From Hydrolagus colliei (lineage: Eukaryota): a DNA stretch of 64,000 nt. The position numbers and the translations under genes are program-made. Location: contig CM068748.1 in NCBI GenBank assembly GCA_035084275.1, positions 5,704,001 to 5,768,000 of the forward strand, given 5' to 3'. Shown piece after piece: positions 18,676 through 57,860 of this stretch. The notes under the pieces were generated by a model. It ran no database searches. It saw nothing but the letters and a program-made list of their open reading frames with translations, and had not been told where the DNA came from. Position 1 is the first letter of the stretch. Every line of letters starts with the position of its first letter.

Positions 18676-18729
18676 CAATAGTTCAGTTCATAGACTACAC
18701 TGAGTTTATCTTTTGAAGTGCAACAAATG

Positions 18730-19000
18730 GTTTCAGTACCTTGGGTTTACCAGAAGGGAAAATGCAGCAGTCCTGATTGCTATTCAGTGACTTGCTGGAA
18801 TGTATGCATGTTAGGTGATCGTGTGGTGACAGAATTTGACTCTGGTGGAGACTTTCTTATCCCCTCCTCCATTTAAATAGCCTTCTGGTACTCACTGTCT
18901 ATTCTCACACATGAATAAAAGCCTCTGAGGTAAGGTGCATGAGCGCGCCCAGTGCTTATGGAACCATATCCAAGCAGGAGTCAGCATTGTCAGGACCAAA
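18730..19000 (+). repeat. Ancient interspersed repeat, possibly MER131-like
   Basis: cctgattgctattcagtgac...aatagcc...actcactgtcta..ctcacacatgaa...tggaaccatatccaagcaggagtcagca recalls an old SINE-like repeat; related fragments may lie at about 32120-32260 and 47290-47370. The family name is from memory only. Confidence 0.35.
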
Positions 19001-20462
19001 GCAGGCAATGGTTTTATTGTTGATCACAGAGCTGCATAAACCTACCTCTAAATGAATAGTACTTAAAAAAAATCTCTTGAATGTTTTGAGTCAGCGTAAA
19101 TGCAGTAAGTAGTATGTACTGTTGCTACATTTAGTATGCCTAGCTTTCCCTCCCAAACCCTAACTGTTTTTTATTCAAATTGCTACATATTCAAAGCACC
19201 GGCCTTTTCATACAGCTTTCACTGAATCCGTGAACTGAAACAGCCACATTGTTTAGCTAGAATCCTTGTTTTGGAGAGTTTTAATGCCATGGCAAATGGC
19301 TGGAAAGAGAATTGAAAGCAGCTGAAATGGGTCTGCAGAGTATTAAAATGCCTGAAGTTGCTTGGGAGTTTTAAAATCCCATGTAACCTCAATACAAATA
19401 TATCTATTGTAATATATATGATTAAATGCTCAGTTTAAATAGTCCCATCAACAGGTAACTAAAATATTTATGCTTAACGGAGGACTTGTGTTAACTTCCT
19501 TAATAGTGAAATATAAACAAGAGTTATCCATAGCTTATTCCTTGTCTCAATTGTAGAATATATCCAGAGCAGGTGTCTTAATAAACACAGGCAGATTAAA
19601 GGGACGCTGTAGGAATATCACAGCTGCCAGTCCAGCTAATCTGCTGTGTTACAGTATACTGTAGTATGAAAATGCATCTACTATAAAGCATTGAACTGGG
19701 ATGAACAGACATTCTGTACTAATGATAAATTTGATAACCAATTGCAAATTTGGATGATTATATGGAGACGCAAAACTAAATATTCACAGAAAATGAGAAA
19801 GACTCATGAAAATCATACTACTGTATTTGGGACTGAGATGATCTCTTGAATTTCAAACTGCAGAGTAGCCCTTGATGATAAAATTCCTAAACAGACTGTG
19901 ACTTAAATGCAAAGCATGTTGGTAGGCAGCTCAATGGTATCATGGGAGTATTAAAGTGTCCTCTGTGTTTACCCCCACTAAAAGACATGTTTTAAAAATC
20001 ACAAATATAATTTCAAACAAAACTGCTTTGTAAAAGAGTAGATTCTTTTTAAGATCAAGAGGAATTTGCTAAATATCTCAAATTAATAATGATCTGAAAC
20101 TTTTGTATATTAAATTACACTGTCCCTCTTGCTTTTATGAAAATAACTTGTAAAACCTCTACATATAAGCAAATAAATATCAAAAGAACCTTTGCAGACT
20201 GCGTCATTACAGCGAAACACAGGGCAAAAGGCTGCAAGATTGCTTGAGGTCAAAGACCAAAATTAATAACATACTTGTCAGAACAAAAATAATATTCTCT
20301 AAATATATCTTAATATGGTTGAAAGATGAAAATCCTAAAACAACTTAGTTTATTTTGTTTAATTTAAAGTTGCTCAAGTCTTATCTGTAGATAATAGTTT
20401 GAGGTCACAGTTATTGGAGCTGATGCACTGTGTTCTATATAAAGTTTAGCGTGTTTTGTGTG

Positions 20463-20884
20463 TATAATAATAATAATCCTTGCATTTGATTTAGTGTCTT
20501 ATCATGTTGTTAAAAGGTTGCTTCACAGTGACGTCTTAATGATGTGATAAGCACTTAAGGATGTACTGCAAAGTGGTTTTAACTATGTGTTTTGGGGGCA
20601 AAACATGACAGCAGTTTCCACATAGCAATATCTCACAAACCGCTGTGAAGTGAATGGCCAATGTTTATTTGGGGGATTTGGTCCCCAGAGAAACTCCCTA
20701 CTCTTTTCGAATAGTACCATGGGATTTTAAATATCCACCTGAACCCTTGACTTTGGGTTAATGTTTCATCCGAAGGACAGCACCTCTGACAATGCAACAC
20801 CCCCCACCATTGCATTGGAGTGTCAGTTTGGTCCCTGACCCAGAGGTGAGAATGCTACCACTGGCTAGGCTGACACACAAGTCG
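20463..20884 (-). mobile_element. Deu-domain SINE (AmnSINE1/SacSINE1-type)
   Basis: The reverse complement contains the Deu-like block tgcattgtcagaggtgctgtccttcggatgaaacattaacc...ttcaggtggatat...atcccatggtactattcgaaaagagtagggagtt, followed by the shared 3' tail. Confidence 0.75.
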
Positions 20885-26800: not shown

Positions 26801-27934
26801 TTTGAATTTAAACGTTGAGCCAGAAGTGTTCAGTATGGGAACCAGCTCTTCTGTGGATTATGCCATTCAAAACAGTTTTCAAACACAGATGGTAAAATGT
26901 TGTGCTGATCAAAAGGGGAAGAAAAAAAGGGGGAATTATTTAGTTGAAGTGTTCAGTGGTGTGTGGCTGACATAAGCTGAGAATCAATTTAAAATACTAC
27001 AATTTTGAGAAATATTACACAACATTGATCTGATATTGATGTATTTTAATTGCTTCAGGACACACTTGGTGCTGTTTTTGATTTTGTTTATATGTTGTGG
27101 TTTATCAACTTGACAGTGCAATGAAGGAGTTGCCTGGCAGCACTGTAGGTAAAGGGAAAAATGTTTGTTTCTCATTCCCATTGTTTGGTCAGGAGTTAGC
27201 CGCAATTGACAACAATAATGTGTATATAAAGATCACCCAAAACTCTGTGCAATTCACATAGCCTCGTATGTTCATTCAGAGTGAATCAAACAACTTTAAA
27301 AATCACCCTATTTGCAACATTATCCCTCATAATTAACACTCGATTGCAGAAAACAGTTGAGAAAGCAGGTAGTGTTTAATATGTACATTCTTTCACGGTT
27401 AACGGATAGTTTTTTTTTAAAAGATGATTTATTTTTTATGATTAAGAGACATTAAAGTGCACTAAACTGCAGAGTAACACAAGTCACGGGGTGTACGTTC
27501 CATTGTATTCTCGTAGAAAGGATGATCAGTACAGTGCTACTGTTCTCAGTTTATTGTTGTTTCCAGAGCAGAAGCAACAAACCAGATTGCCTCAGTCGCC
27601 CAGAAGCCCGGCATAGAGGCCAGCAAAGTTGCTATGGTAGCCAGAGAACGATGCACAACCTTTACAACGTACACACACTAACTCCACCAGGACTGCCAGA
27701 TCCTTTCAATTTATACCCACTTGAATCAAACTGTAGGTAGTACAAGCCGAAAATAGACACAGTCCAGCAGGAGTCCAGAGGTACAGGGGCACCAAAAAAG
27801 TTGTGATACTTACCCTACTATCTAAAAAAAATATTTAAGACTCGTTAGGCATTGTAATGGTATCGGGACTTTTGGTCACCCTGTACAGTATATCTTAGCA
27901 AATAAATACAGAATTTTAGATAATAATGTATGTG

Positions 27935-28249
27935 AATAATAATAATAATAACCCTCGCATCTGTTATAGTGCTTTTCACATCTTCTAGAAAAGAGCTTCA
28001 CAGGATTATACTGTAAAGTCAATTGACTGCATGTTTGTGGGCAAAACACGGCAGCCAATTGCGTACAGCAGTGTCCCACAAACAGTCGTAGATAAATTTA
28101 AATAACCAATTTATAATTGGGTTTTTTGAGAGGATTATTATCAGGCATGTGGAGTAAGGAAACTTGCTCAAGGTTTCGCTCTGCCTAGAATCAAATCGAA
28201 GTCTCTTGCTCGTAAGGCGAATGCTCTAACCACTGAGCTACAAGACTCC
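27935..28249 (-). mobile_element. Full-length tRNA-headed SINE (short variant)
   Basis: Colinear with 17510-17830 from head to (ATT)n tail. Confidence 0.88.
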
Positions 28250-29074
28250 ACATTATGACTTATTACTTTTAGAATTTCAGTTGTCACTTGCGAGGAGAAT
28301 GAGAATAGTTTAATCTTATCGTCCAGTTGATTAAACTGTTGGCAAAAGTAACCATTGAGATTATAAACATTAATTCCAGAAGGTATTTGGTTGCTCTCCT
28401 CGCTTTCTTTGTCGATCAAGGACCTTACAAGAGTTCACAATTTGTTATCTTAGTAAAATGTGTGGCTGACAATGTATGACCACAGCTGTGTTTTTCTTTA
28501 TAAAATAGTGATTGATTAATTAGGCAGAATCACTGATAACAATGATCATATAGATCATTTGGGAAACAAAAACACTATACTAGTGCAGTAGCAGATGATC
28601 CTTTTTTAGATTGCCTTTACCTGACCTCAGAGTGCCAAATGTTCACAATCAGTACAGTTAAAGTGCCTATTCCTGTTTTTACTAAGTGCGAAAGTTGCTC
28701 AAAATACTTACTTTTTCAAGCTCTTGAAACTGGTGCGAAATGTTATCATATTTTTAACTATAAATCTTTTGCATTCTGACTGATTGTTTCAATGGAAAGG
28801 ATTATTTATACTGAATAAATCAGATCTTTAAATGAATGATTTTAATTCATCTGAAACATCATGATTACAATCATGATTGAGGTTTTTGCTGAATGTGTTT
28901 CAAAAAGCAATCGACATTGCATTGAAAAAAGAGTGAATTAACTTTATTCACATGCTTAATAAAATGGTTTATTTCCTTACGTTGGTTCATACCAAACATT
29001 GAAAATGTACTAGGAAGTCTATTTAATGTACTGCAGCCTCCTTAACTAAAGCATGTCTTTTTTTGTCTTTCTAG

Positions 29075-29170
29075 GCACTCTGTCCTTCAGCAAAAATAGA
29101 AACTATTCGATTACCAGAAACAAATCAAGTAAACAAGTTAATTTTCCGTGAATCAAATAACGATCGAAAG
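29075..29170 (+). CDS. INPP5A: INPP5A coding exon (96 nt), ALCPSAKIETIRLPETNQVNKLIFRESNNDRK
   Basis: Polypyrimidine tract then ctag|, and |gtatga; phase 0/0; similar to human TLCTKATMQTVRAADTNEVVKLIFRESDNDRK. Confidence 0.95.
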
Positions 29171-29268
29171 GTATGACTGTGTTCTGTAAACATGAAATGC
29201 ATTTGTGGTATGTCTTCATACCTATAAAGTGGAAATTGATTTCTGATTGACTTTTATCTTTACTTAAG

Positions 29269-29343
29269 GTGATGCTTCAACTAGAAAAGAAGCTTTTTGA
29301 TTATTTTAACCAAGATATTTTCCGACAGAACAATGGCGTGGAG
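29269..29343 (+). CDS. INPP5A: INPP5A coding exon (75 nt), VMLQLEKKLFDYFNQDIFRQNNGVE
   Basis: taag| and |gtgagt; follows a 98-nt intron; near-identical to human VMLQLEKKLFDYFNQEVFRDNNG. Confidence 0.95.
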
Positions 29344-32300
29344 GTGAGTCTTTCATTTGCCACGTGTAGAGCATGTTACAGCAAAGTTGGTTTACAAATG
29401 ATCATTATTAGGTTTGAAAACTTGTAAGCAGTAAAACAATGAACTACACTATTCTTGACTGTATCCTGTCTTATCCAAAACATCAACCCAGTGGTGACTT
29501 ATTAATGTGCTGTTTGTTGTTGTGTGTGTTGATAATTCAGCACAAACGCTAAACAAGAGATACATGTATTGCCGAATCCCATCTTTGTTTCATGAGTAAC
29601 CTCTTTTCTCTCTGCCTCTGGTCTGTAAAGGCATTATTTAAAAATAATTTGTTGTGGATGAATTTTTCAACCACATATAAAGGGAAAGTGAAAATAACCA
29701 TAAAAATATTAAGCCTTGCAATTAATATGGAGCCTTGTAACATTGTTGAGACATCTCACACTATGTGCTGTGACCATCGTATAAACAGAACTTATGATTT
29801 CTATCCCACATTGTATGCTCCCTAACGTACATTCTGGCATCCCCAAATTTTGGCTTTAACCAGCCTGCACCTAATACTTTTTGGAAAGTTTCAGTAGTTT
29901 GGTTTGAATGTCAGTATGACTATTTCTGTGGCTCCCAGCAGATTCAAAAAATAAAATAAATAATTCATCATTCCCTGATCTTGACCACATTAGAGGCTCC
30001 AATTCATAAGGTTTAATAGTGTTTATTTTGAATGCTGCCAAGCAATTTAAAAATGGTAAGTACAAACAAAGTAGTTCCAACCAGAGTTGCAAGGGGTCAT
30101 GATTACTGGTCAGCAGTTCACTGAGTAAACTTCACATGCAGGAAATGATGTTATTAGTGATCTGATGACCTGAAAATCAGACATTTTTTAAGCACACAAG
30201 AAGGCAACCGACAGTTTCAAGTGAACCGGACAAATTTCCGTGCGCATTTAAGTATATATTGGTAATTAAATATAGGGGACCACATCCCAAATATGCTAAA
30301 AGCGTGCCAAGGGTATACAAATAATGAAGCACATTATACCAGGGGTTTACTGTTATGTATTTACAGGAGTGCTTCTTGGAAGATTTATTTACCTTGTGAT
30401 TTTGAATTCACTTTGAGACATTGAATTTACCCTTGATTTACCCTTGATTAGTTTTATTCTAAACACTAAATCACTGCTACTAAACTGGACATGGTTCTAT
30501 GACGTCCTGTGCCTTTTTGGAGATATCTTACAAGGTCAATGGTGAACATACTGAATACCAGATACAAGCTGATTTTCTCATGTTGGAAGTTTATTAACCA
30601 GGCGGTAAGACCAAAAGAAGTTGAACTAGTTTCACACATCCAACCTCTCCAAGGGAAAAGTATTTCTGACCAGCAACGCATCTTTTAGCCTTATTTGACA
30701 ATACAGTATTAAGAAAGTGCACTTTTTAAATTTAGCATGGCAGAGAATATATTCTGAGATTTATAAAAGGATTTGAATCAGGGAAATCCTGAATGAGTCC
30801 CGACTCACTCCAGAATACAGTTCAGAAGTTGGAACAGTGATCAGCTTTCCATTTGAGTTCCAGAGGTTTTGGCCATGCCACATCCAGGATTCACTCTATA
30901 CAGACAGTGGTGTAATGGCTATGATGTGCCTCCCGATAACCAGTTCTGACACAGAAAAAATGGGGGTGTTAAGGCAGAGTAAAGCTGTATTTACTTGCAT
31001 TTACAAGTTGTCTCCCTCGAAAAGAACTCGTCTTAATCAAACATAATCAAAGTTAGTTTGAATGAAAATGCTGGTGTGTTTTATGATGGAATAGTTGAGT
31101 GCTTTAATTTACCCTATTCCAGTCTGAATCAAATGGCAACATTACTTTTGACTGTTAGAGTTAATGCAATTGTATTGTAATTATTGAGGTGTAACTGCTT
31201 AGTTTATTCCAGCAATGCAGTCTTTTACCACATATTAATACTCACTTCCTTCTCCAATTGCTTGGAATAAATTGCTTGGACTGATGCATCTCATAATTAA
31301 AAATGTTCACACCGTGAAATAGAGCACATTCAAGTTACTTTCAGCTGCATGAATCCCAGTGCTGTGAGGCTGAATCCACTTTCTCCCATGGCTATGAAGG
31401 AATGTTTAATGTGGTTGGATCGATATTCACGGTGGGGGGGTGGGAGTGGGGTGGTGGAAACAAAGCCAGCAATTGTGTAAAATATTCCAAGAAAATTGTT
31501 CAAAATTAGGACTTTGCCCTTTAGCCCAGGCTTGTGAATTAAGCAATGTGAACAGAGCAATGAGAAATTAGCAGGGAATTGCAAGGCCTTAATAAAAATG
31601 AGAAGCTTAGGTGACATAGGAAAGCATAAGAGCAAAGCGGGAATGCTTTTTTGTTAATTATCTAACCTCTCAGGTTATGTAATGGACATCAATTCCATTT
31701 CACTTGTATTTCTCAACGAATGCTGTTTTTCTTATTTGTTCAATTTGAAAATTACTGGTTATTTACTGGTAGGCAGAGCTCCCCTGGGTGAAAAGGACAT
31801 GTTGGGGAATGTAGAGTTCAGGCTTTGTGACATAGCCAAGTGGAAGTTTATTGATCGCATAACTGGTGTGCTGAATATTTTAGCTCGGTAAATGGATTCA
31901 GTAGGAGCTCTATAGAGAAACTCTTAAAATATTATCTAGCAATCAGTGCTTGGCCTTACCTACCCCTGAAATAACCTACCTTGTTAAGGAGTTGCTCTTG
32001 TAGGTGGCTTTTTTTTAATTGTCTTAACTGTTTTTAACTCAGCTCCCTCTTGTCCAATTATTGTCCCTCGTCGCTTTACACAAATTAGAAATATATTTTG
32101 TTGTTTGATATCTGAAGGGTAGTGCACTGGGCACTGCACTGGGTAGCAATATGTCATACCGACTAGTTAGTACACATGTTGCTTGCAGGGCTGGGCTGAG
32201 TTAGTTGATCTCAGTTGATATAGCATTTGTAGTGCTACAATTGGTCAACCCAACTTTCAGATATGACAAGAGTTTACAGGCTCTGGATTGAAGGGTAATT

Positions 32301-32399
32301 TTAGAGTAGCCACCTGGAAATATTTATTTATACAGAGGATAATTAATAGCCAACAAGTTACTTGGAAGGCTAAAGTCAGTAGCCAAGACTTATTCAAGA

Positions 32400-32705
32400 A
32401 TCATCTATTTAACATAAAGTAGGCTGTTTCCATTGGTTGTGAAGTTCATAACCTGGGGTCACAAATATAGGATAGTGACTAGGCAATCAAAAAGGGAATT
32501 TAGAAGGAATTACTTCACGCATGAGGGCAGTGAGTTTGTGGAAGTCACTGCTTGGAGTGGTGGTTGAATCAGATTGTATAGATCCATTCAAGGGGAAGGG
32601 TATTGGAGGGAGTAAAGAGGAATAGGTGGAGACTCATGTTGAGTATAAATACCGGAATGGACGGATTTGGTGAATTGCCTGTTTCCTCGCTGTATATTTA
32701 TAAAT
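32400..32705 (+). mobile_element. CR1 LINE ORF2 C-terminus and 3' end, degenerate
   Basis: Reads like LFPL...GHKYRI...EFRRNYFT..AVSLWKSL...VVES...FKGK across frameshifts, then a CR1-type 3' tail. Confidence 0.65.
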
Positions 32706-32934
32706 TTTGATAGTGTCATTGAAAGTAGGTATGGCTATTATTTGGGGTTGATGAGATCAAATGGGCCAAAGCATATTTATAAGTTCAATTGGCCCCAAAT
32801 AATTTTTAAAATAAGTTACATTTTCTGCTATGTAATGCTATTACTTTCTTTTTTAACTTCCGCAGTGACATAAGGCTAAACTATTCCCCCTACAATTGGG
32901 AGTCATATAAAACGCATATTTGTAAAGTCTGGGT

Positions 32935-34441
32935 TTTCATACCACGACTTCATCTCCCTTAACACCTCCGTACTCCTTCCCCCTACTTGGTCCTCCACTA
33001 TCACCTGGAAAGAAATCTCCCTCTCCCTTTCCGCTGCCCTGGAGTCATCTGAACTTCTGCCTCTCTGGCCTTCACAGACTCATCTACCCACTTTGCACTC
33101 TTTTTTTCCACAACTCCATCTCCATCTTTGATTCACTTGCCCTCCTTGCCTCCCAAACCGCTTCATACATCTTTCTCGCAATTCCCTCTTTGAACCCATC
33201 CAATCCAGCTGCCCACATTTCGTAAACAGTCCTGGTCAAAGTCTCTAATGACATTCTAAACATCTGCGATCAGGGCTCTTTCTGCCTCCTGGTCCACCTC
33301 GACCTCTCGGCCGCCTTCAACACTGTCGACCACTCCGTCCTCCTACACCGCCTCTCCTCTCAGCTCATTCTTCGCGGTTTGAATCTTACCTCTCCCACCA
33401 TCTCCACTTTGTCACCACTAATGATTTCTCCAACCCCTGCATTGTCACGTGTGGCATCCCCCAGGACTCTATCCTTGGCCCTCTCCTTTTTAACATCTAT
33501 TGTGCACCTCCTTGGTGACATCATCCACAGACATGGGTTCAACTTCCATATATATGCAGATGACCCCCAACACTATCTTTCTGCCTCCACCCTTGATTTC
33601 AGGACCACTGCTGCCCTGACAGACTGCCTCTCAGACATCACGTCCTGAATGACAGCCAACTTTCTGTAGTTGAATGTCAACAAGACTGAGGCCCTCCTGA
33701 TTGGCTCACGCCAACATGTCCGCACCTCAGGCATTAGCAGCATCAACTTCCATGGATGCACACTCCACCTCACGAAGCCAGTCAGGCACTGAGGTGTCTT
33801 GTTTAATCCTCAACTGTCTTTTCTCCCCCACATCCATGCCATGACCCACTCTGCCTTCTCTCACCTCTACAACATTACCTGACTCTGCCACTACCTCACC
33901 CCTCAGGCTGCTGAAACTCTCATCCATGCTTTCATCACATCCGGGCTCAATTATGCCAATGCTCCACTTGTCAGTCTCCCCAATTCCTCCCTCCATAGGC
34001 TGCAGATCAACAACAACAACAACAACTTTGCTTTATATAGCGCCCTCCACGCGGGACAGCGTCTCAGATCAACCATAACTCTGTACCCCGTGTCCTCTCC
34101 CGTACCAAGCTCTGCGACCGTATCATCCCCATCCTCACCCAACCCCACTGGCTTCCCATCACTAAGAGGATTCAATTCAAAATCCTGGTCCTCACCTTTA
34201 AAGCCCTCCATGGCCTTGCCCCACCTTACCTCTGCGACCTCTTAACCCCCTATCAACCCGTCCACTCCCTCCGCTTAGAGGGCTCTGGCCTGCTCCATGT
34301 CCGCCGACCCACCCACCCCACCATCGGTGGGCAAGCCTTCAGCTACTCTGCCCCCAACCTTTGGAATTCCATCCCTCAATCCCTCTGCCTCACTTGTCCT
34401 CCCAACGTGAAAGGTGCTGTACAAGTGTAATTTTGTTGTTG
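32935..34441 (+). mobile_element. L2 LINE fragment with decayed reverse transcriptase
   Basis: Motifs LVKVSNDIL, LDLSAAFNTVDH, GIPQDSILGPLLF, HIYADD and HWLP..RIQFKILVLTFKALHGLAPPYL, with stops and deletions; (GTT)n tail. Confidence 0.9.
34012..34064 (-). mobile_element. 53-bp extremely 5'-truncated retroelement tail with 9-bp TSD
   Basis: CAGATCAAC is duplicated at 34003-34011 and 34065-34073. The insert is agacgctgtcccgcgtggagggcgctatataaagcaaag(ttg)n on the minus strand. Confidence 0.8.
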
Positions 34442-36996
34442 TATTATAGATCTAAGTCACGCACATTATATTAGTGAAGAGCTAGCGTATACTAGAAAAG
34501 TGACTTTGGGGACGTTAGTAGATGACTGCGATATAAAGCTTCTGTGGGATGGAGAATGGTCAAATGGTCTAAAGACTCTTTTACCATGGGCGGTCACATT
34601 CATATCAAATCAGAGTTGATCCAAACTGAAGTGATATCTCAGCACTTACACTCACCTCTGCCCTGACATAATTCACATGCCAGATGATATCAAACATCAA
34701 CCCCTAACTCATGCACTGAGGTTTCCCTCAGGAGCAGCAAGTGAGCAGGGATTCAAAGCTAACTGTTTACACCACTCTGAATTTAATCACAATGAATCCC
34801 AACCGACTTTAAAGCTGCATCAGGAGGTGGGAGTTTTTATCTGAACAAATATCTGAGTAAATAAGTCTAGAGAATTTTCACCAAAGGTTATAATGTGAAA
34901 CATTTCCAAATTGAGAGTAAACATAGATTGCACTGTTGCATAAATGAGGTTAAAGTGCATGAGTGTCTCCTCTTGTTCTATCTTTGAATCAGCATAGTAA
35001 GAAATTTTCTGCAATGATTACATCAGGGAGGCTCAAAACAGCCAATTATTCCATAAGTGAGAAAGATGCACTTAAGACATTCCAAGAATAAAGCATTGTT
35101 TCAAGGAGTGATTATCTTTAAACATAATACCATGTCAACTTTTTCACTTTTTCACTTCATTTAATTGCATTGAGGAGTATTTAATGTTTTGTGCTCCCCA
35201 ATTATTCAGATGAATTTCTTTGCTTAGTTTGTAAGTACGCTGAAAAGCTATAGATTATATGCTTGAAATGAATACACTCATATTCTATCTTGTTTTCAAA
35301 ATATTTCTAAATCATAGTTTCCTATTCCTAATAAGAGTTTTAAAATATTTTATGGCCAAATCAAGCTTGGGATAAGAAAGTTAGATGGATAAATGACGTT
35401 TTCTTGATTGTATAGTGGAGTTGAAAGTGCCATTCTCAGAAAAGTAGTACCATTTCTGAGACATTGACATTGGAGAAAAACAACCTATGGGATGAACTCT
35501 TAACTACTTCAGGGATCCCCACGTGTGTCACAATTGCTTATGGGACCTTAGTCTGATCCAGGGTAACCTTGGCGTATGGTCTTGCTTGTCGGTGTGGTGT
35601 ACATGAAATTCTCTGCTGGAGATATAATTTACATCCCAAAATAGCACTAAATCTCTAGCTTTCCTGAGGAGCCCTTTGTCAACCTCATGCTTAGTGTTTG
35701 ATGTTGTTGTGCAAGTGGGAGTACTGTATAACTTTATGATTTTGCCTGATCTGATGTAAACCAAAAAATTGACTAATATCCTATTTTTGTGTTTGTTTAA
35801 GATGGCGTCTCTGCCCTGAAGTCAAATATTTTCTAAAGACTTTGACATTGAGTCAATGCATTCCGCAGGCTGCCTGTTTTCCGGCCTGTAAACCCAACGC
35901 TTCGTGTTTTAACATTCCCTGTGTTGCAGTAGAATTCATTATATTTGAATTCATTGCAATGCAAGAAGGTGTGCGACTTCGCCAGATCAACTTCATGAGA
36001 AAGATAAATGATTTAATGAGCCATTTGAGATAATCTAATCTTCATGGTCTAGTTATACACAGAGCGGTGTGATCACTAAAAACAAACTGCCCTTCTTCAG
36101 GATGAATGTTCTTATACCAAATTCCCTCCCCCACTCCAAAAAAAAATCTATTGCATCCTTCATCAACCACTAGTCTTGTACCAGGTTGACAGAAATTTAA
36201 TTCAAGTCAGCTCTTGAAAATAATTATTGTATTTTGAGAGCAGTAATCATTGGTTTGGACATGATTGAATGTGTCCATGCCTATTGACTTTTTCTATGAT
36301 TTATAGGTTTGTTTAGTCGATATTCCCATCTAAATTGTATAATTAATTATAAGTGTAGCTGTCAAGTCAGAGGATGGAATGCACTGATGAGTATTTGGGA
36401 AGATTAAATTTTCCTTTGCCATACAGATGTAGAATTGGGAATTTCACAGACCTGCTGCTGGATAGAGTTGTGTTCGCTGCCTGCTTATTTAGGCTCTGAC
36501 TTGCTGCATGTTGAAGTGCCATTGATTTTTGGGTTTTATCTGTGTGATGTCTCTCCAGTAACACTGGAATCTATTTGAACTGAACAATCACTGACAAACT
36601 TTCTTGTCAGTAAACTGCTTTGTCACTGTCCTCTTAGTCTCTCCCACACACAGTCCACTAAAGCACATTCTTAGCCTTGTATTACTTTTGATACATTCTT
36701 TATTAAGTGCACCATACACAAAATAGAACATGTTTTGTTACTGGAGGTGATTTGCAATTAATTGGAATTCACGTTGCTTTGCTTTTTAACTTCTTGATCC
36801 ATCACCTTCTAAATTTTGATGGTTTTCTCAGCAAGAACTATTGGAGTAACATTCTGTGAAGTTACATTCTAAAGAGGATGAAACCATAAAGTGCTAATTA
36901 GTACTGTATTGTACATATGCTATCTCTAATATTAAAGTTAATACTGTATATGTATGTGCATTTAAATATTATAACACCAGTTACATTTTAATATGC

Positions 36997-37240
36997 TAAT
37001 AATAATCCTTACATTTGAAATAGTGCTTACACATTAAGAAGTTATCTCAAATAATTCTCAGGATATATTGTAGAATGATTGTAATTTGTGGGATAACCTG
37101 GCCCCAATTTGTGCACAAAATATTCCACAAATAGCCATCAAGTGAATCAACAATTGTAATTGGGGATTGGTGGCAAGGATTCTAGGAGAAACTCTCTTCT
37201 CTTTTAAAATTAAATAGGAACTTTGACATCCACTTGAATA
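36997..37240 (-). mobile_element. Degenerate Deu-type SINE
   Basis: (TAA)n, then ccttacatttgaaatagtgc tail, ...aattgtgcacaa..., and gacatccacttgaa (Deu-like). Confidence 0.55.
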
Positions 37241-39620
37241 AGACTATTCAAAAATAAATGGGTGTTTTCTCCCAATGTCCTTGCCAACATTCCTAAAAAT
37301 GAATTGGTCTTGCTTGCTTGCATAAATGTCTATAGTATTCTCTTACTAAACAGTCAAGATACTTCACAGCAATTACCTGTGAAACACTTGGAAAACAACA
37401 TATCAATGTCATAAAACAAGATCTTTCTTTACAATAAGTAGCATGAGTTCCAAATTCTGGTACCTATGAGAACCAAGCGAGTGTTAATTTAAAACTAAGA
37501 GCTTTCAAATGAGGGTGGGTTGTGCTTTGGAATAGGTCATAAACATGCTAACAGACCCCAAAGGTTAAATTAATATTAGCACTGGCTTTCATATCTTTAT
37601 TTTACATTGACTTAACACGAATGGCATAATATTTTTAATTCAGTGTAGAATTGGTGTTATTTATGACCATTTCCAAAATGCTGATCACATTTTTTCTCTT
37701 CTTCCAAACATCATTTAACGTTTGCATCTGCAAAACCTCCAGTGAATGCTGCCAATGAGTGTGATAAATGCAAGTAGTATCACCTCTTGATCTGGCTCAC
37801 TGCAGATTTGGGCTTTGAATCCTGAAGAGTAATAGTTGCACTTTCACTGACTGTAGTGTGTTAAAGAATTCAGCGATTCAAGAAATAGTAGGAAACTTTG
37901 CAAATTCCTGTCATACGACCACAGGGAACTTTGTGTGGCTTGCATTCTTAATAGGAATATTTACTAATTCATAGATTATTTTATAATGTAAATGTGACAT
38001 TAATTTTTTTTTAAAAAGATTGTTGTTTATTTTCTGTCCTAAATATAATTTTTAGCTTCATCCCATTGAGGGAAACCTATGATGCAGTATCCCACTATAT
38101 CTGCATTCAATGACTCATTCATAATTCTTTAAATAAAAGATCTGATGAATGAGTGACTTTTCCAGACCTCAAAGGCACTCTGATGCCATCTTCAGTGATC
38201 TGTATGATCTGTAATGGCAAAGGTTTATAGGAGCCTATATCTGTAATATGAATGAACTCCAGCAGTATATTACTCCATTCATACCTTAGTTTGCTATTGA
38301 AAATTGGAGGTATTTAAGGTCAAAGTCAGTAGTGATTCATGACTAGTCACACATGTCATTTGTGTCATGAAGCCCACTTGTACATCAAACAGACAGAAAT
38401 GAGATTCTGTTCATTTTCCTATCAAGTAAATTCGAGGTGAAATCATGTTTGAATCGAAGGGCAAGTTATAAATGAGAATGTAAATTGGTTCGTTTTCAGC
38501 TAAATTTAAGCTGGACTTTTATTGCAAATTTGAAATCTAACCATAAAATAGGTGACACTGTGAATTGGATGAAGCTCTCCATGTTTGAGGCCATGGTGAG
38601 ACTGTTTGAGCGAGGCAATTTGGGTGTTTCCTGCTTCTGAATGAAAATGTGGGAAGAGGTGGTCATCTTTGCAGGTGCTTCAGGTGACTAGTTTCACATA
38701 GATAATTAATGTGTACAAGTAGCTGCTAATTTTGCATTTCAGGAATGATTTATGAGGTGGCATGGGATAGAGGGACATAATCTAATTTAGATCAGAACCT
38801 CTGCCACCCATACAATGATATCAACACAGCTGTGAGATGAGAGATGATTAATGGGCAGCCAAGTAAACATGCTGTAGTCATAAAAGGTGTTATTTTGATG
38901 ACATACTTGTCAGAACAGGAAATGGTACTTACAAAGAGTGATGGTCAGTAGCAAAAGAGATTATTTGAAGAATTTTGTAGGTGAATAAGTCCCTGTGCTA
39001 AAAACAAATATTGATGCAAAGAAATGCTACAAACAATTTGAATGCTCATTTGTTCCCAGACCAGGCAGTGCTCCTAAGATACCACCTCCCCCCCACCACC
39101 CACACATATAATGCACACATGCATGCACACATATAAATAGTTCTGTTTCTCCCTGAGTTTAAGGTAAGAACAGTCCTTTTCACTGGTTACTTCATGCACT
39201 GAGAGACATCAATTATAAAAGTTATACATATTCAATAGAAGGCCTGGTTTTAGTTGTGGCACCGAAGGGTTTAAGCAAAGCGCCACCATAATGGAGACAC
39301 TGAAATGAGGTAGTGCTTGCTTAGTCACTGCACACTTCACTTTCCTGACATTGCTCCTTCTAGACATTTAGGAGATGATTCTGTTAGAATATTCAATAAA
39401 ATTATTCATTTGAAAATCTAGCACATTCAGAAATTATCATAAAACTTGTGAAAAAATTTTCGAGCTACAGTTACTCAAGCATTTACTTTTACCTTTGCAG
39501 ATTTTGTTAAGTTAAATCAGGACAAACTACCCATTAAAATGTTGATAAATAAATCAATGAAATGCCATAACAGTGCGCAATCATTTTTTGTATTATGATT
39601 GACTTTAATTTCTTTTTCAG

Positions 39621-39694
39621 CTTTTAGAATTTGACAGGGAGATTTCCGTATTTAAAGACAAGCTGAGTGAACAAGAAATATCATTTCCACCCAG
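39621..39694 (+). CDS. INPP5A: INPP5A coding exon (74 nt), LLEFDREISVFKDKLSEQEISFPP(S)
   Basis: tttttcag| and |gtatga; ends in phase 2, matching the next exon; similar to human LLEFDKELSVFKDRLYELDISFPPS. Confidence 0.95.
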
Positions 39695-40939
39695 GTATGA
39701 CATCTCTAAGGATTCATTGTTCCTCTGAATGCAATTATTTGAAAGTGAGTTGTATTTGAAAGTGAGAAGGACTATGGTTTTCAACAGGCTATGTAAATGC
39801 CATGTGAACATGAGGCGACAAAAATGCATTCAACCTGTACCTCAAATTACAATTAACCTGTAATTCAAAATAAATTTTAAATGTTAATCCTATTGAGGAT
39901 TTCAGATGATATTAATTGAAGCAAGCTTTGCTTTCATAGTTTATTGAATCGCTTTATTGGAATGTCCCTGGATGACATTCACCAGGATATTAAACACAGG
40001 TAAAAACTAAAACTCTTGTTAACTGTCTCCTTTATAAAGGAATTTACAATTAAAACCAAAGGCATTAAAATGTGCAATCTGCAGCACATAAAGATGAGGA
40101 TTAGCTGTATCCCAATGTCCAAACAGTCCAGTGCAGGCATTTCCAGGATTTGCCCACAGTTGCAGTCAATCTGAAATGTGGCCATACCTCACTAAAGTAT
40201 ATATACATATATTTCCATTGATCACTTTATAATACAACTTAATTATTTTGCTTGTTTTTGCAATAAACTGATCAAGTAATGGGTTTTGCAGTATCATTTA
40301 CGAAGCTATTCAATATGAGGTTCAAGGATATTTTTCTTATGCTGGGATATAAATAACTGAGATCCCAGCATGACATGCTCATATGCTGTTTTCTATTAAA
40401 GTTTGTGGTAAACACCATCTGACTATGTTATCTTTAGATTTTCAAAGGTTACATTAGTGTGCCTCTTAAATACATGAAGTAAAAGCGTTTGCAATCTATT
40501 TTCTTTTAAACCTGGAAGCAATGTAAGGTTTTGCTCAGATTCACTGAGTGGATGCTCAACATTGAACTCGAAACAAGTAGATTCTATTTTTAACTGATGA
40601 AGTTTTGGAGAGCCTCAGTCTAGTCAAATGGAACAAAACATAGATGAAAGTTGCTGTTATGTGTTTTGCCCCCTTGCAAACCACTACAGTTGTTGTGCTA
40701 AGAGAAACCCAGGAGTAACCCTTCCAGTTTCCCATCTCCCTATGTTTGAACTGTTCAACTTTTTCTCTGTCACTCTTGATGAACTGTACACACGCTGTGA
40801 GGGGGTCAAAGCTGTATCCCACCACTGGGATGGTGGACCCTTATTGGTGATGTAATACAGCTCGGTACAAATCAGTGGTGTGTTCTTAAGCTCCTTTATT
40901 TGTAAATCCAAACTCTCAGAAATCCTCACTCCAAACCAC

Positions 40940-41060
40940 TCACATTGTCCCACAAAATGCAGTCAATTCACTTTACAGTATATCCTGTGAAGCACTTTGT
41001 GAGATGTGTCTAAGACATGATAAGGGCTATATGAAATACAAGGATTATTATTATTTATTA
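40940..41060 (+). mobile_element. SINE 3' fragment
   Basis: cagtcaattcactttacagtatatcctgtgaagc...atgaaatacaaggattattatt. Confidence 0.75.
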
Positions 41061-41974
41061 CTCTCCGTATCCTTTTGTACTTTGAGTCTTTCTTCTTATT
41101 GGGCCTTTGGTTAATTGTCCATTACTATAAAGGGAAGGAGCTCTGGAATTGTAACTATAGGGTTCTAGTTTGATACGACAAATCCCATTTCATGATCAGA
41201 GTGGAGTTAGTCCCATCAAACAAGATTGACTTTGAACTTGTAACCCCGAACCAACATATCTTGTTTGAACGCAAAGCATCATCCTGTCTCACTCCTATAG
41301 TCATGGTAAGTGAGTCCAAGTTCAATAGAATTTTAACACTTGTGAAATTACGTGGCTTTCTGTTAATTATAAAGATTTTGTTCCCCTCCTCATTACAATT
41401 GGCGTCAGACTGAAATCCTCCAAAATTGCCGATATGCAACTCATTGGTATTACACACCCATAGATTCATTAACTAATTAAATTACACCAGGAATCTTATT
41501 CTGGAAGCAGAGACTCCTTATGCGCAATATTGATTGATTCCGGTTATTTTTGATTGACAGTCAGTTGTATGAACTGATCGCAATCCTTTTCTCTTTCATT
41601 TTTACATTCCAAACTATAGTTGAGCGAACCTCAACCTTAACACATCAGGGTTGAAATGGAGAAAGTTACATTATCATGTCTTGTGTTTAGATTTAAAGAA
41701 TGCAATACAAGCTGTAAATTCATATTGCTTACGCTCAAGAAGTCATCCATCAGGTCAGGTGTGACAAGTCTGAACACTACACATACTTGTGCTGAATTTG
41801 GCTTTCCCATGTTAGTGGTCGTTCTGGAGCCAGAGAGGCATAACATGAAAATGATGGAGTGGTATGCTCTTGACTGGACATTTTCAAGCAACTTATGATG
41901 GCAAACTCATGTTAGAAAAAATGTGAATGAATTTCATAGAATCATAGTTCGCTGCAAACAGTTACACCTCCTTT

Positions 41975-42270
41975 TAATACAAGGTTACAAAGTAAATTCC
42001 AAACAGGGATTCACTCCATGTAGACCTTCCAATCCAATTTCCCACAATATTCCGTTGATGTGTTTATTTCTAAATCTATAACAACATTGAATCATTTTAG
42101 TTAACAAGCACTTGTCTAATTCTTTTTGAAACTCTTTGTAGTTTCTTGTTTCAATATCTGTGATAGTAAATTTTTCCCCCCATATTCGCATCATCCATCA
42201 CAAAACACTTTTCTCTTGCAGTTCCTACCTTTATTTTGTTCTCTTTATTTTGATAGTTTACCCTTGTGTT
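41975..42270 (-). mobile_element. Degenerate CR1 3' fragment
   Basis: The antisense ORF contains FQKELDKCL, similar to the CR1 ORF2 terminus FKxxLDxxL. Confidence 0.4.
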
Positions 42271-45200
42271 GATATTATCCTTCATAAAATTAAAGTCAAG
42301 CAGCATCTGAAGAATAACTGAAATTGCCCCAACATTGAGATTTGTTTGTAAAAATGTCAGGCTCTATAGGATGTGTTGGACCAGAATTTAACCAGAATTT
42401 AACAAGAACTGAGTCTAGTCATTGGTTTTCACACTGAAAGCCAATCAAAATATTTACCTGACACAAAATTAACTCTTTTTGGACTAATTATTATCTGGAC
42501 TAATCATTCTTTTGCCCTCGAAAAGAGCTCAAATTTTTTTTTCAAGCATGTTAAACTCATGTTGTGTGTTTGTGGTATATCTACTGTTTTGTGAGTGGAG
42601 GTGGTGAGGCAGGAGGAAAATGTTAAGGACAGGCACTAAATGTTAGCTAATGAAGTATTTGTCTTCCACAGTTCATAAAAGTAAATGATAATTTGTTAAG
42701 AGCCCTAGTTATATTATTTATGAAGCCATTAGGCATTGATTAAGTTTGAGATTGCTAAAGTGTACAGCAGAAGAATACACTGTAGTTGAGGCTATAGTGA
42801 TTAAATGAATGGCTCCTTTCCCACATCGAAGTGTTTGCCAAGTCTAGACAGCATCGATGGGAGAAGGGAATGATATACAGTTGTCTCTTCACCGTTTGCT
42901 GTTTAATAGTAGACCGAGACTAGGCTGAAGCCTGCCTCGGCAAGTTAGCATTCCTCCTAGATACTGCAGGTCTAGAAAGGCAGGTCAAAAAGTACTTGTC
43001 TTGAAATGTTTGAGAAGAAGTAACGCTTGTGAGATGAGATATGGTGGCAACAGACTGAATAGAAAGGATACACTGCTTAAAAAATATTGTTTAAAAAAAG
43101 GGATTCTGTCATGAGGTTACATTTAATAATGAGCTTTTTTTAAAAAAAAATTAGAAAAAGTTGGGATCAAGATATCACATTGTATTTTCAATCATAGAAA
43201 TTAGACGCAATAAATCAATTGGATTAATTATACCTGTCTTAGGTCCTGGCCTGGAACTGCACAATAATCATTATCACTGGTTAGAAACAACCACAAAATG
43301 GGAATATTCAATTCTTTGAGTGTGCCAAATTCACCTTCAATAAAAATTCCTCTTTTGTATAAAAAATTTGACTCTTTCAAGGACTTAGAAAATAAATATT
43401 TTGAGAGAACTCAGCATGGAGTGATTTGTATTCTTGTGACAGCTTTGGTTTGGGTACATTTCTGCATTACATGAATCATAAATCACACAGTACAATTCTA
43501 TGTACAATCAATTGCGTTGTAGTAATTTGTAAAATGTCATTATGCAAATTGTTTTACAATTAGACTGTTGTTTTTCATTACATTGGAAATAACTTATAGC
43601 CTATCAGAATATTGATTTGATGCTGGAAAATATTTGAAATTCTATACTGTATGTGCTTTAAGGATGGGTACTGATATATTAACATAAATTACATCTGAAG
43701 AATTATAACCCTTGCATTTCATATAGCACCTATATCATCACCTGTAACATCAGTATCAAAGTGCTTCACAAAGTTTCTATGAATTGTTAGTGAATGTGTA
43801 TTTTTTAGGTGCAGCAGTACAATACAAAGTCATTCGCTTAGCCAGGCACTTGCTATGAATCCTTTCAATTGGCATCACATCATACCAGCCTTTAGAATAA
43901 ACATTAAACTGAGGTATTCTCTGCCTATTTCCCTAGTGTTCCCCTGATAAAATTGGTCATTCACTTCATGGCTGTTTAATAGATATTGCTGTGTGCAAAT
44001 TGGGAACAATTGATAAATTTGCACACAAATACACAGTTGCTACACTTAATAGTTTAAAACAAATCCTGTGAAGCATTTTAAGATGGTTTGATTAAGTGTT
44101 ATATGAAATGCAAGGGAAATTTAGTCATGAGGTACAAATCTGTCGCGTTAAAAATTTGTCACATTACATAGTCTGGGCAGTCCTATCCACTGTATCATCA
44201 GTGAAGCTAGTAATTTTGAATATGTACTCAATCAGTAAACACAGAGCATATATACTCAATCAGTAAACACAGAGCAGTGCTAAATGAAGACTTCATAAAG
44301 TACAGCAAATGTATAAGTAATTTCCTTGTTGCTTCACGAACCGATTCATTATTTGTAATATTGACTCTGGAAGGTTGGAATGTGGCATTGTTTAAAGCTG
44401 AATCCCCTTCTCCCCCCCATCACTGCGCACACCCCATTGCAAAAGTTTGCATTCTGAAAAACGTTTCCGAATACTACTCGGGAGATATGAATCAGCGTGC
44501 TGCAGTGTCCTGCTCGTGTTTATCACTGTACTGGGGTTGCCGTGCAATATGCTGAGATATGTAAGATGTTCGTATCTACCAAGACATTCACAGGGTCCTT
44601 AACATTGCGGCCAGTTGAGTTCCTGTGGCTTTTTGTTTCCAGTGTCACATTTTATTTGTCCTTAGCAAATGGCTGCAAATGTGTTGAGGCAAAGTCAGGG
44701 AATATCACTGAAAGCTCCGAATGGTAAAGAGAGTATTTATTTTACACCTCCTCTGGCAAATAGAAATTAGTGTCACCTTTTAAGAGTTAACTTTTACAAT
44801 TCAGCTTTTTCATGCTATTTAGTGGCGGTATTCTCCACAGTCTTACAATAAAGAACACCTATCAGTTTAAATTACACTCTACACGGGGATTTTAGATGGC
44901 GAATGCATTGTTGGGAACCATTCTACATGATCTGATCTGCTCTGCAGCCTACGACTCAAGTAATATTTGCACTTCTTGTCTTTTGCTACTGCAACCCCCA
45001 TGAATTGCCTGATTGACCTCCTTTTCTTCTTAGACCTTTGACCTCATTGTTAGTTTGGTCACCATGGTGTTATTGTAACATTTGCAAGTAGCATCTGTTT
45101 AACACATTGTACTTCAACTGTAATGTTTGCCATCTTGATTTTTTTAAAAAGTTGCAAAACATCTCTGCTTAATTCAGGAAAAAGCTAGCAAAGGATCCGT

Positions 45201-46016
45201 GAGATCTCAGGCATTTTTGTTGCCAAATTTTATTCGAATGGTAATGCTTAAAGAGAAGGACTATTCTAACAACGATCGGTGACCTATTAACGAGCCAGAA
45301 ACCTTTCAAAAATGTAACATTTCAATTTGTAATAAAATCCAACAGCTTTTAGGCAAGAGTGATCAGATATAAAATGAGCTGAATCTAGTTCTGGAGCCTC
45401 ATAAATTGTTTCACGTAATTAATAACTGCTTATACTGTAGTTCATGTACATACCCTATCTTTATGTGTGTGTATTTATATATACTTGAAGCTAGAAAGCC
45501 AGAAAAATTACTGAGGCAAGTACTGTACTTTCTTTCAAGATTAGATGATATTTCAAGATTAGATGATATTTAGCTAAATTTTGGTCAACAACAACAATAA
45601 TAAAATTACATTTATAGAGTGCCTTTCACATCAAGAGGACATCCTAACTAACTGGTAGGTGCAAGTAACTATGTTAGCTAATTGCAAATTCCACTTTAGT
45701 TAACTGAGTCACTTTAATTGGCAAATTAGATCCTTTTTAACAACGTCACGTGGCAAGCACCAATGGACTGCCCAAGTTTGGTGATGTGTACTTATTATAG
45801 CTAAGGAGGGGTTTACTCTCCATTAAATTTAAGTATTCCTTTGACATACACAACAGGAAATAGTATCCTGTCCCCCAAAAGCTATAAGGCTGATGGTTTT
45901 CAAACATATTTCTAGAAAAGACTTAGTACAAATGTTGGTATACAGTTTCCCCTTTCTATTGCCACTCCCTATTGAATAAAATGACCATTTATTGAATCTA
46001 ATTACTTTTTTTTCAG

Positions 46017-46128
46017 TTACCCATACAGTGAGGACTCTAGTCAGGGAAAGCAGTATATGAACACAAGGTGTCCTTCTTGGTGCGATCGCATCCTTTTGTC
46101 ATACTCTGCAAAGGATCTTATTCACAAG
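46017..46128 (+). CDS. INPP5A: INPP5A coding exon (112 nt), (S)YPYSEDSSQGKQYMNTRCPSWCDRILLSYSAKDLIHK
   Basis: Contains the second 5-phosphatase signature P(S/A)WCDRIL; tttcag| and |gtgagt; phases are consistent. Confidence 0.96.
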
Positions 46129-54205: not shown

Positions 54206-54530
54206 AATCCTAAAGATTTTTTTGTCTGCTATATATCATTTTGTATAATTGATGCTATGAAGGTTACTCCAGTTTAGGGTTGAGGGCATTTTATTTCCAC
54301 ATAGTGCATTATCCCAAGTGTACAAAAGCTGCAGCAAATTGTGTGTAGTTTGTGGCATTCTGCAGAGATCCACATAAAGGTTGGCCTTCCATCTCCTCTT
54401 GTTTGTTGAAACTCTTGTAGATTGCTTTCTCACTGGCACTAAATATTTGTCTTTGCAGCTGAGCAATTGTGAAGGGATCTTTATGTGAATAGCCACTCTG
54501 TCTGTAAAGAAAGTGATCTCTGTTTTACAG

Positions 54531-54599
54531 GCAGAAAATGATGAGAAGTCAGTTATCTATGACAACATGGGACCAAATGTTTGCATGGGGGACCACAAG
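54531..54599 (+). CDS. INPP5A: INPP5A coding exon (69 nt), AENDEKSVIYDNMGPNVCMGDHK
   Basis: ttttacag| and |gtaaag; carries the GDHK part of the GDHKPV motif. Confidence 0.95.
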
Positions 54600-56047: not shown

Positions 56048-56128
56048 CCTGTCTTCCTGTTCTTTCGAATAGCTGCTGGGGCAGGTAAACCTAATGCAAA
56101 TATGCGCAACTGTTGTGTGGTGCAGTGA
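56048..56128 (+). CDS. INPP5A: INPP5A last coding exon, PVFLFFRIAAGAGKPNANMRNCCVVQ* (CAAX box CVVQ)
   Basis: tgtacag| acceptor; TGA at 56126-56128; C-terminal CCVVQ as in mammalian INPP5A, whose CVVQ is farnesylated. The exon probably continues 7 nt to a gtaaat donor after 56135. Confidence 0.95.
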   Translation, partial: PVFLFFRIAAGAGKPNANMRNCCVVQ

Positions 56129-56274
56129 TGTGGTGGTAAATATTAATGTTTTCTTTTCTTTTACTATTCACCCATGTTCTTTTCAGTATTTAATTGACAT
56201 GTTAACACTCTTATATTTTTGTTAGTTTTATTACCTAACATGCTGTGTTGAATATTTTTGTGTGACAATCACAG

Positions 56275-57860
56275 GCAAAAGATGTCAAAGAAATGAGAAG
56301 ATCTTTCGAGAACCTGCCCTTTAGTCTATTTGAGGCAAGCGAACGAAAGGTGTGGGAGCAGGACAGGAGAACTTGCAAACATCCTTGTAATTCAACTGAT
56401 GTTGATACTGTATTTCTTAGTGCCGCATTTCAGACTGCTCATCATCCATTCTGCTTTGATGTCTGAAGTCTATACAAGACAACCATCTATACAAGACAGC
56501 CACACATACCTCACCATTTCATATGTTCCTGTGACACTTGAATTAAATGTGGGACAATTTTAAAACGTGTCACAGTTTTGTTGCCAAACGCTAAGAGTAG
56601 AATATACTACACATTTTAAATATCTCACATTTATAATTTTAACTGATACAGTGTCCCTATTCAATGTAAGAAACTGTTTCCTTATGTAAAACTCATGAAG
56701 TGCAATGCTGAAATTGTATATCTATACTGTACTAGAGAGTTTTTTGTACATTGGATTGTATAGGAGTGAAATTTCACTTTTAGTGATGGTTTTATTGATA
56801 TTTTCTTTACCTTTAAGATTTTTATTGTATGTCTGTGTTAGGCTAGCTAGGTATTTTCATGTTATATACTACATACTGCCACATTTTATCCGATTTCGAA
56901 TCACAAATTAGCTGCTCTCTTCATTTTTATATCTACTTAAAACAAACTAATTTATAATATAATCTTTCCAAAGCCCCTAAATGAAATTCCTTTCAGAAGG
57001 ACTGGCTGCTCATGGTCTGACATATCAACTTTTAGTTCCTATACCTAGCTGATTGAATATACAAAACTATATATTTTCTCACCCAAACTATACTATAGAT
57101 AGCTTTGACTGTCATTGTTGATGAAATATCTAATTTACTATAATCACCACACGTGAATAGCAGTCTCTGTCTGTGTTAAGTACTTCTATTGTAACTTATT
57201 CCTATGTGATGCCAAGTTTCAGAATGTGAAGTTTAATAGGATGGATATCTTATAAGATTTTTTTGTAAACTATTTCTGTCTATTTTTGTTACTGCATACA
57301 GTGCCAAGTATCTATGGACACATTATAATGGAGGATATTTCCTTCTGGTATTAGCTTGCTAATTGTGCTTTAATGGATTGTATATAAAGCCCTCAAACCT
57401 GAAGATGCAAATTGCAAATTTGGTAAAAATTGTATCACCTATATTTAATCTCCAGCCAGCGCTAATGTTGCAAATTTTACACGCTGCTTCTTACAGCATT
57501 AAAAGGTGATTAGATCTGAAGATGGAGAACACAGCCAATGCCTAAACGTTTCCTCTATCGATTTAATTTAGTACACTACAAAGTTCACAAGCTACTTGAT
57601 AGCAGTGGATTGATGCGTGTTTTCGTATAAATCACTACGGTTGGAAATGATTTTGTGTCTGCCAGCAGAATTTATGTGGCTGTGACCGTGAGATCATTCT
57701 CGTTTGTAGACAATAAAGAGTAAAACGCCAGTGTGCAGATAAACTGTACCAATGTGCCCAGTATCAAATAGCCGTACACTGTAAACTATTTTATTAAATC
57801 AGAGATTCAACTTATGTGACGTTTATGGGCCATAGAAATAAACTTCTTTGTTTCTCAAAC
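56275..57860 (+). other. INPP5A: INPP5A terminal exon: 3'UTR, and an alternative C-terminal coding segment at 56275-56324
   Basis: Branch-like cctaac at 56234-56239 and acag| acceptor at 56274. Repeat-free AT-rich sequence runs to AATAAA at 57712 and 57837. The 3' end is approximate. Confidence 0.7.
57837..57842 (+). terminator. Candidate INPP5A polyadenylation signal AATAAA (alternative at 57712-57717)
   Basis: Canonical hexamer followed by T/GT-rich sequence at the end of the UTR-like block. Confidence 0.55.

Follow-up and report, generated by a model that had tools for sequence, protein, structure and literature searches.

The INPP5A locus of Hydrolagus colliei raises the question of whether one splice donor lying inside a coding exon allows the same gene to make two enzymes with different C-termini, and if so, what the second C-terminus would serve. 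INPP5A has been described as the main enzyme ending IP3/Ca2+ signals and is needed by Purkinje cells (PMC7046734, PMC11848503). The human protein is farnesylated and palmitoylated at C408/C409, and a mutant without the CAAX cysteine (C409S) leaves the membranes, becomes nucleoplasmic, and damps Ca2+ oscillations more weakly (PMC12450637). The published accounts considered here treat INPP5A as one lipid-anchored protein.

The INPP5A locus and its last exons

The stretch of DNA analysed here (the window) comprises 64,000 nucleotides, positions 5,704,001 to 5,768,000 of contig CM068748.1. It holds the 3' part of INPP5A, with seven coding exons in order as located by tblastn with a shark ortholog as query. 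Named orthologs match it at a single locus, and Callorhinchus milii proteins with the PF22669 domain share 95-98% identity with one of the upstream exons; a paralog or retrocopy of the last coding exon was considered and excluded, there being a single match in the genome (G000). For comparison, use was made of L001, a metagenome record with fish-like host DNA, in which 1 locus was obtained from 326 pattern matches, with both exons and the intron present. The features of the locus are as follows.

Near 12845, 29078, 29266, 39633 and 46015 (span 12845..46128, limits approximate), + strand: five upstream INPP5A exons, from tblastn with the shark ortholog
54529..54599 (start approximate), + strand: INPP5A exon ending GDHK and spliced to 56048, from tblastn, with the joint present in 4/4 RNA contig sets
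56048..56135, + strand: penultimate exon, encoding PVFLFFRIAAGAGKPNANMRNCCVVQ, with TGA at 56126-56128 and 7 nt of UTR
56048..56084, + strand: shared part of the penultimate exon, encoding PVFLFFRIAAGA plus the first base of a split codon
56111..56125, + strand: CCVVQ, a predicted palmitoylation Cys followed by a CAAX box predicted to be farnesylated, from the sequence and from human C408/C409 (PMC12450637)
56136..56274, + strand: last intron, 139 nt when counted from the distal donor and 190 nt from the proximal one, with a branch-like CTAAC at 56235 and an ACAG acceptor whose AG is at 56273-56274
56275..56324, + strand: beginning of the terminal exon, untranslated in the major form and, judging from the L001 codon-position test and orthologous tails, GKRCQRNEKIFREPAL plus TAG in the proximal form

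The coordinates, the two donors, the acceptor and the in-frame proximal join that had been set out in the earlier note were all confirmed on the sequence. What that note called the last coding exon does carry both donors, but the transcript has one more exon after it. When the donor at 56084 is joined to the acceptor at 56274 the frame is kept, and a 16-residue tail, GKRCQRNEKIFREPAL, is read up to the TAG at 56322-56324. In the distal form CVVQ stands directly before the TGA, giving a CAAX box; the proximal form ends EPAL and has none, and Cys at -3 is found in 0/44 distinct 16-aa tails of this kind. The shared stretch 56048..56084 corresponds to the last beta strand of the phosphatase domain (strand E388-394) in the predicted model of a ray ortholog.

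Three further observations concern the annotation of the region. The window contains an N run of 200 bases at 62837-63036. Where the GDHK exon should stand, the Callorhinchus milii model P0002 has intron sequence ahead of the penultimate exon, which is likely an error of the model. At 55268-55306, unrelated contigs from all four RNA runs match 30-40 nt of intron that likely belong to a repeat.

Two competing splice donors

The two donors and the segment that separates them are these.

56082..56092, + strand: proximal (internal) donor, CAG followed by GTAAACCT, cut after 56084; strong on the exon side, identical in L001, and leading to the CAAX-less tail if used
56133..56147, + strand: distal donor, GTG followed by GTAAATATTAAT, cut after 56135, 7 nt beyond the stop; junction present in RNA, with the first 12 bases of the intron shared by L001
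56085..56135, + strand: inter-donor segment of 51 nt, holding the CAAX tail codons, the TGA at 56126-56128 and the 7 nt of UTR

Both donors are identical in L001 and share one acceptor, as is expected of a conserved alternative 5' splice site. The predicted U1 duplex is stronger at the proximal donor (-8.3 kcal/mol) than at the distal donor (-5.3 kcal/mol), and when all 3635 GT sites of the window's + strand are ranked, the two fall in the best 1.5% and the best 8.8%, respectively. The segment between them is identical to L001 at 47/51 nt, and its 15 codons show 0 synonymous and 3 nonsynonymous changes; read from this alignment, its synonymous sites are frozen at the RNA level, apparently for splicing. 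Since the proximal donor pairs better with U1 and the distal donor is nevertheless the one seen in RNA, we infer that the frozen 51 nt carries elements that set the ratio of the two forms. An RNA structure masking the proximal donor was tried as an explanation and rejected, four folds all being weaker than shuffles (z +0.6 to +1.3).

Left- and right-handed classes of 5' splice site have been described in relation to LUC7 (bioRxiv 10.1101/2022.12.07.519539). By a simple balance count, which is not the published score, the proximal donor (-2) matches on the exon side and the distal donor (+1) on the intron side, the latter being weakly right-handed. Three constitutive INPP5A donors in the window likewise score -2, and opposite control of the two competing donors by LUC7 paralogs is therefore a lead only.

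In gene models of other vertebrates the same region is spliced in further ways. The position orthologous to 56084 is joined to other downstream sequence in sturgeon, bowfin, one frog and several mammal models (tails of 2-96 aa), which indicates that the donor can find more than one acceptor. Separately, 19 bird, turtle and crocodile models skip the penultimate exon, losing the last beta strand and reading the terminal exon in another frame for 24-71 aa; the corresponding frame (54599 to 56275) is open for 63 aa in the window, and its product is probably non-functional.

Evidence from RNA

Transcript evidence consists of contig assemblies from a related species, in 4 sets from 2 studies. These are 4 of ten runs guessed to be RNA among 15 listed, none of which is recorded as RNA. 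All four sets (4/4) splice 54599 to 56048 and leave that exon by the distal donor, and the proximal junction from 56084 is absent from 4/4 of these contig sets, a form of assembly that drops rare variants. For that reason the distal-only result shows the CAAX form to be the major one and no more. In one run (X3) a contig breaks at the 54599 donor, where depth drops from 1869 to 1620, suggesting a further path.

Coding constraint on the second tail

The earlier note had proposed that part of what would be taken for a 3'UTR exon is conditionally coding, and the comparison with L001 bears this out. Over 17 codons the second tail differs from L001 at 4, 2 and 14 sites in codon positions 1, 2 and 3 (Fisher p=1.2e-5, for one species pair), with 9 synonymous, 5 nonsynonymous and 3 identical codons (pS 1.0, pN 0.20). 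Each of the other two frames of the same stretch gives 0 synonymous and 14 nonsynonymous codons. Third-position differences in one frame alone argue for selection on the protein as opposed to a UTR element. The stop codon occupies the same position in L001 as a different triplet (TAG vs TGA), and nucleotide identity at the start of the terminal exon is 60%, falling to only 22% in the following 50 nt. An open frame by itself proves little, as one of 15 codons arises in 30% of shuffles; what is above chance, as the alignments are read, is the codon-position pattern against L001 together with the fixed length of the orthologous tails. An indirect codon test on the 19 exon-skip proteins of birds and reptiles leaned in this direction but was not significant (9 vs 5, p=0.21).

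It could be argued that what is conserved at the head of the terminal exon is a UTR or splicing element, the annotated second forms being noise from a cryptic donor, because mis-spliced conserved nucleotides yield similar peptides, as the exon-skip frame of birds and reptiles does. The nucleotides, however, are conserved only to the 60% given above, with their differences at third positions of a single frame, and the exon-skip products vary in length whereas the second tail does not. This explanation is largely refuted and is considered very improbable. The second tail is almost certainly a selected coding isoform in vertebrates.

The second tail across vertebrates

A vertebrate set of 436 proteins was fetched, with at most 15 listed members per cluster, most of the tails being predicted gene models. 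The second tail is present in at least 103/436; 83/103 of these tails are 16 aa long, with 44 distinct 16-aa sequences. Another 218 proteins end in a CAAX box, and the remainder are without the exon, without the GDHK anchor, or have unrelated ends. Taxa with the second tail include sharks, rays, teleosts, lungfish (20 aa), frogs, salamanders, turtles, lizards, snakes, birds and mammals, and chosen same-gene pairs carry both endings in 13 vertebrates. In the bullfrog, 18 contigs hold the second form and 100 the CAAX form, and run assemblies (Logan) are among the sources for each. Across the 44 distinct tails Glu stands at -3 in 40 and Leu at 0 in 40. A palmitoylated Cys was considered as the purpose of the tail and is not favoured: Cys is found at position 4 in 33/44, but Tyr takes its place in all sharks and rays seen.

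These comparisons uphold several earlier claims. The proposed two-donor switch with loss of the CAAX box in the proximal form is supported by the donors kept in L001 and by the same-gene pairs, and the internal GT and the tail frame, whose conservation the proposal called for, are respectively identical in L001 and under codon-level constraint. The mammalian alternative tail that the note mentioned exists in hamster, macaque, bats, whales and others, and as mouse isoform B (PMC7046734). The switch is at least as old as jawed vertebrates, as had been suggested, the tail being present from sharks to mammals, and the protostome pairs described below make a greater age likely. The GK said to mark the junction holds for the window but is not conserved in other fishes, with AK in several sharks, DK/DI in catfish and GN in pipefish.

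In mammals the predicted second tail drifts in length and sequence. Overall lengths run from 15 to 40 aa: tails of 15-16 aa are found in macaque, lemur, bats, cats, ground squirrel, horse, hare, sheep and deer, and longer ones in hamster and cotton rat (24), goat (25), whales (36) and pig (40). Salmonid second tails stop at 11-12 aa. All human proteins retrieved (3/3) end in a CAAX box, 15/603 members of the main mammalian cluster having been listed, and no lamprey or hagfish protein was among the named results of the second-tail search. A divergent killifish INPP5A-like protein, P0478, has a 16-residue CAAX tail and is perhaps a paralog.

For the chimaera itself, the switch could be real elsewhere and vestigial here, with the proximal donor seldom chosen and the tail in decay like that of rodents, whales and salmonids. 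Consistent with decay are the distal junction found alone in the four contig sets of the relative, the Pro at -2 of the window tail, and the absence of the second tail from the 3 Callorhinchus milii proteins retrieved and of any chimaera from the 10 short fragments matching the tail. Against it, the window tail has the majority residue at 14/16 positions of the 44 distinct tails, with length and stop kept, and the proximal donor is intact and strong. The relative, moreover, has 0 changes from the window over 56277-56315 and ten over 56316-56363. Within its tail there is a nonsynonymous change at 56316 and a synonymous one at 56321, a further synonymous change at 56276 being deduced from the joint. 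Decay in this lineage is judged improbable, and the second tail is probably still used in chimaeras.

The terminal motif

The last residues of the second tail constitute one further feature.

56298..56321, + strand: C-terminal motif KIFREPAL, homolog of K-I-F-R-E-T-x-L / F-[RK]-E-T-x-V elsewhere in animals, in which Pro replaces the -2 Thr

A class I PDZ ligand has the form X-S/T-X-hydrophobic (PMC7138185). The window tail has the hydrophobic C-terminus (Leu), and is not filed as a class I ligand because its EPAL end carries Pro at -2, although it would act in a similar way; the second tail of the related species would end EPTL and also fails at that position. Among the 44 distinct 16-aa tails, the class I motif is present in 24, from sharks, rays, amphibians, reptiles, birds, lemur, ground squirrel and horse, and fails in 20, which include all teleosts (EAPL), macaque (EPSL), bats (EPCL), cats (ETSP), sheep and hare. 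Where the -2 Thr has been lost, in the chimaera, in teleosts and in many mammals, the partner has likely changed or binding has weakened. In the ray form P0132, as modelled, pLDDT is <50 over residues 401-414 of the tail, which are predicted to be exposed and unstructured.

Invertebrate counterparts and the age of the switch

Distant homologs were taken from 50%-identity representatives (P0445-P0579, n=135), of which 101 have the anchor motif and 40 short tails were set aside. The 61 long-tailed homologs divide into 24 ending CAAX, 19 ending E-[ST]-x-hydrophobic and 18 ending otherwise, so that the E-[ST]-x-hydrophobic end makes up 19/37 of the long non-CAAX tails, against a background of 27/12100 internal positions. 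Val is the C-terminal residue in 15/19 of the motif-ending homologs, and the longer pattern [KR]-[IVLM]-[FY]-[KR]-E-[ST]-x-[VLI] is found in 10/19 of them and in 17/44 vertebrate tails. Of ten distant homologs whose source was looked up, five carry the motif, and they belong to a snail, a scorpion, a fly, a moth and a flatworm. As the distant homologs are related to one another, p-values for these sets merely exclude chance and do not stand for independent counts.

The point of divergence is shared as well. The same-gene pairs, 13 from vertebrates and 3 from protostomes, diverge 12-14 residues after GDHK, and the isoform pairs of snail, scorpion and moth split at, or one residue after, the vertebrate donor position. 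The snail and scorpion pairs each consist of a CAAX end and an F-R-E-T-x-V end; the long form of the moth has cysteines at its end and no canonical CAAX. Distant CAAX tails start with Gly followed by K, M, R, T, I, N or S in 25/26 cases, compared with 6/19 of the motif-ending tails and a background of 44%. The residues after Gly are chemically mixed and yet all have codons beginning with A, which fits read-through of G/GTA. On this protein evidence the same donor is, in our judgement, likely to operate in protostomes, and since the forms of snail and scorpion part at the residue where the vertebrate forms do, the switch probably goes back to early bilaterians and predates the vertebrates.

A wider proposal can be built on these pairs, namely that since the bilaterian ancestor one donor has decided whether the enzyme receives a lipid anchor or the address of a PDZ scaffold, so that IP3 is broken down broadly on membranes or within specific receptor-PLC complexes, with the scaffold form kept in flatworms, snails, arthropods, sharks, frogs and birds and eroding in mammals. 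This may well be so, and we regard the case for and against it as evenly balanced.

What the second form may do

The earlier note had seen the switch as one between a membrane-bound and a soluble enzyme. The loss of the CAAX box stands; the soluble half of the claim is probably incomplete, as the tail is selected and its terminal motif, shared with invertebrates, fits class I PDZ ligands. On the plain form of that claim the second product would be cytosolic or nucleoplasmic, and its tail merely short, soluble and stable, or a basic nuclear signal. Such a reading agrees with the gathering of the C409S mutant in the nucleoplasm (PMC12450637), with a cited title that names soluble and particulate brain 5-phosphatase, and with the survival of the frame in chimaeras, teleosts and the many mammals that have lost the -2 Thr. 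It does not, however, require Glu at -3 and Leu at 0 in nearly all of the vertebrate tails, nor a fixed tail length, nor an eight-residue terminal pattern common to snails and scorpions despite very different linker lengths, and it is considered unlikely. A scaffold address is judged likelier than plain solubility because constraint on the last eight residues persists in invertebrates after those different linkers. Binding of the PDZ type, still putative, is a reasonably probable ancestral role of the second tail.

The explanation favoured here, with moderate confidence and from sequence comparison, is that two conserved competing 5' splice sites encode two C-termini, and that the choice between them likely swaps a farnesyl/palmitoyl anchor (CCVVQ) for a disordered tail likely to bind a PDZ-type scaffold. 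Under this model, read-through past the proximal donor would give the major CAAX form, whose CCVVQ would be farnesylated and reversibly palmitoylated, bringing the enzyme to the plasma membrane and ER. Splicing at the proximal donor would give a minor form with the same catalytic domain and an unstructured tail, and elements in the frozen 51 nt would hold down this intrinsically stronger donor. Both forms would be expected to escape nonsense-mediated decay under the established 50-nt rule, since one stop precedes the last junction by 7 nt and the second lies in the last exon.

The second form in published work

The existence of the isoform is not new, as it is already in RefSeq. Mouse Inpp5a isoforms A, B and C have been given as 412, 422 and 420 aa, and RT-PCR with common primers yields products of 272 bp (A/C) and 221 bp (B), a difference of 51 nt (PMC7046734). 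Mouse isoform B (Supplementary Fig. 4 legend of PMC7046734) and the RefSeq 'isoform X1' models represent the same event as the one described here, being 51 nt shorter with another C-terminus, and the reverse primer of that study reads the rodent tail end SVSNSSS. The rodent tail differs in being a 24-aa extension without a PDZ-type end. Isoform B was undetected in mouse cerebellum and prefrontal cortex (PMC7046734). The reverse primer for the AAV 'isoform A' in the same study ends at the isoform B stop and overlaps the common RT-PCR primer. The idea that the AAV rescue used the CAAX-less form was dropped, since the primer is the same as the common primer and brain gave the longer product only; the primers alone do not fix the form that was cloned, which was likely the CAAX form plus some UTR.

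Farnesylation is unmentioned in the available text of PMC7046734, as are 'splice' and 'PDZ' in that of PMC12450637, and the main texts of PMC10965444 and PMC8113574, in their available portions, mention none of isoform, splicing, CAAX, farnesyl or PDZ. A CAAX-less or PDZ-type form of INPP5A was not found in the mostly open-access literature covered on the topic, and earlier notice, for example in the cloning papers of the 1990s, is possible. Within that coverage no account was met of selection acting on the second tail, of its terminal motif, or of an origin that probably lies with the bilaterians.

If the model is true, a second form addressed by its terminal motif would be a direct way to shape IP3 microdomains and could explain part of the soluble brain activity. 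GNAQ/GNA11-mutant melanoma depends on INPP5A, and a block of farnesylation has been proposed as a treatment (PMC7046734, PMC11848503); wherever it is made, the second form would be insensitive to farnesyltransferase inhibitors. The locus also offers an example of an exon that would pass for '3'UTR' and yet codes in one frame, next to a coding segment whose synonymous sites appear to be frozen by splicing.

Comparison with known systems

Alternative 3' ends that govern prenylation and location are known from ZAP-L/ZAP-S, OAS1, KRAS4A/4B, the CDC42 variants and lamin A/C. INPP5A differs from these in that the choice is made by one internal donor in the last coding exon, and in that the non-prenylated form has its own conserved terminal motif, apparently dating from before the protostome-deuterostome split. 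A class I PDZ ligand under splice control is known from the b forms of PMCA, and in SynGAP-alpha1 likewise, as described, a class I motif is displayed by a single C-terminal splice form and not by the others. In INPP5A the motif has been lost in several lineages, including that of the window, and, unlike in SynGAP-alpha1 and PMCA, the alternative to it is a lipid anchor, so that a single donor would choose between two targeting chemistries.
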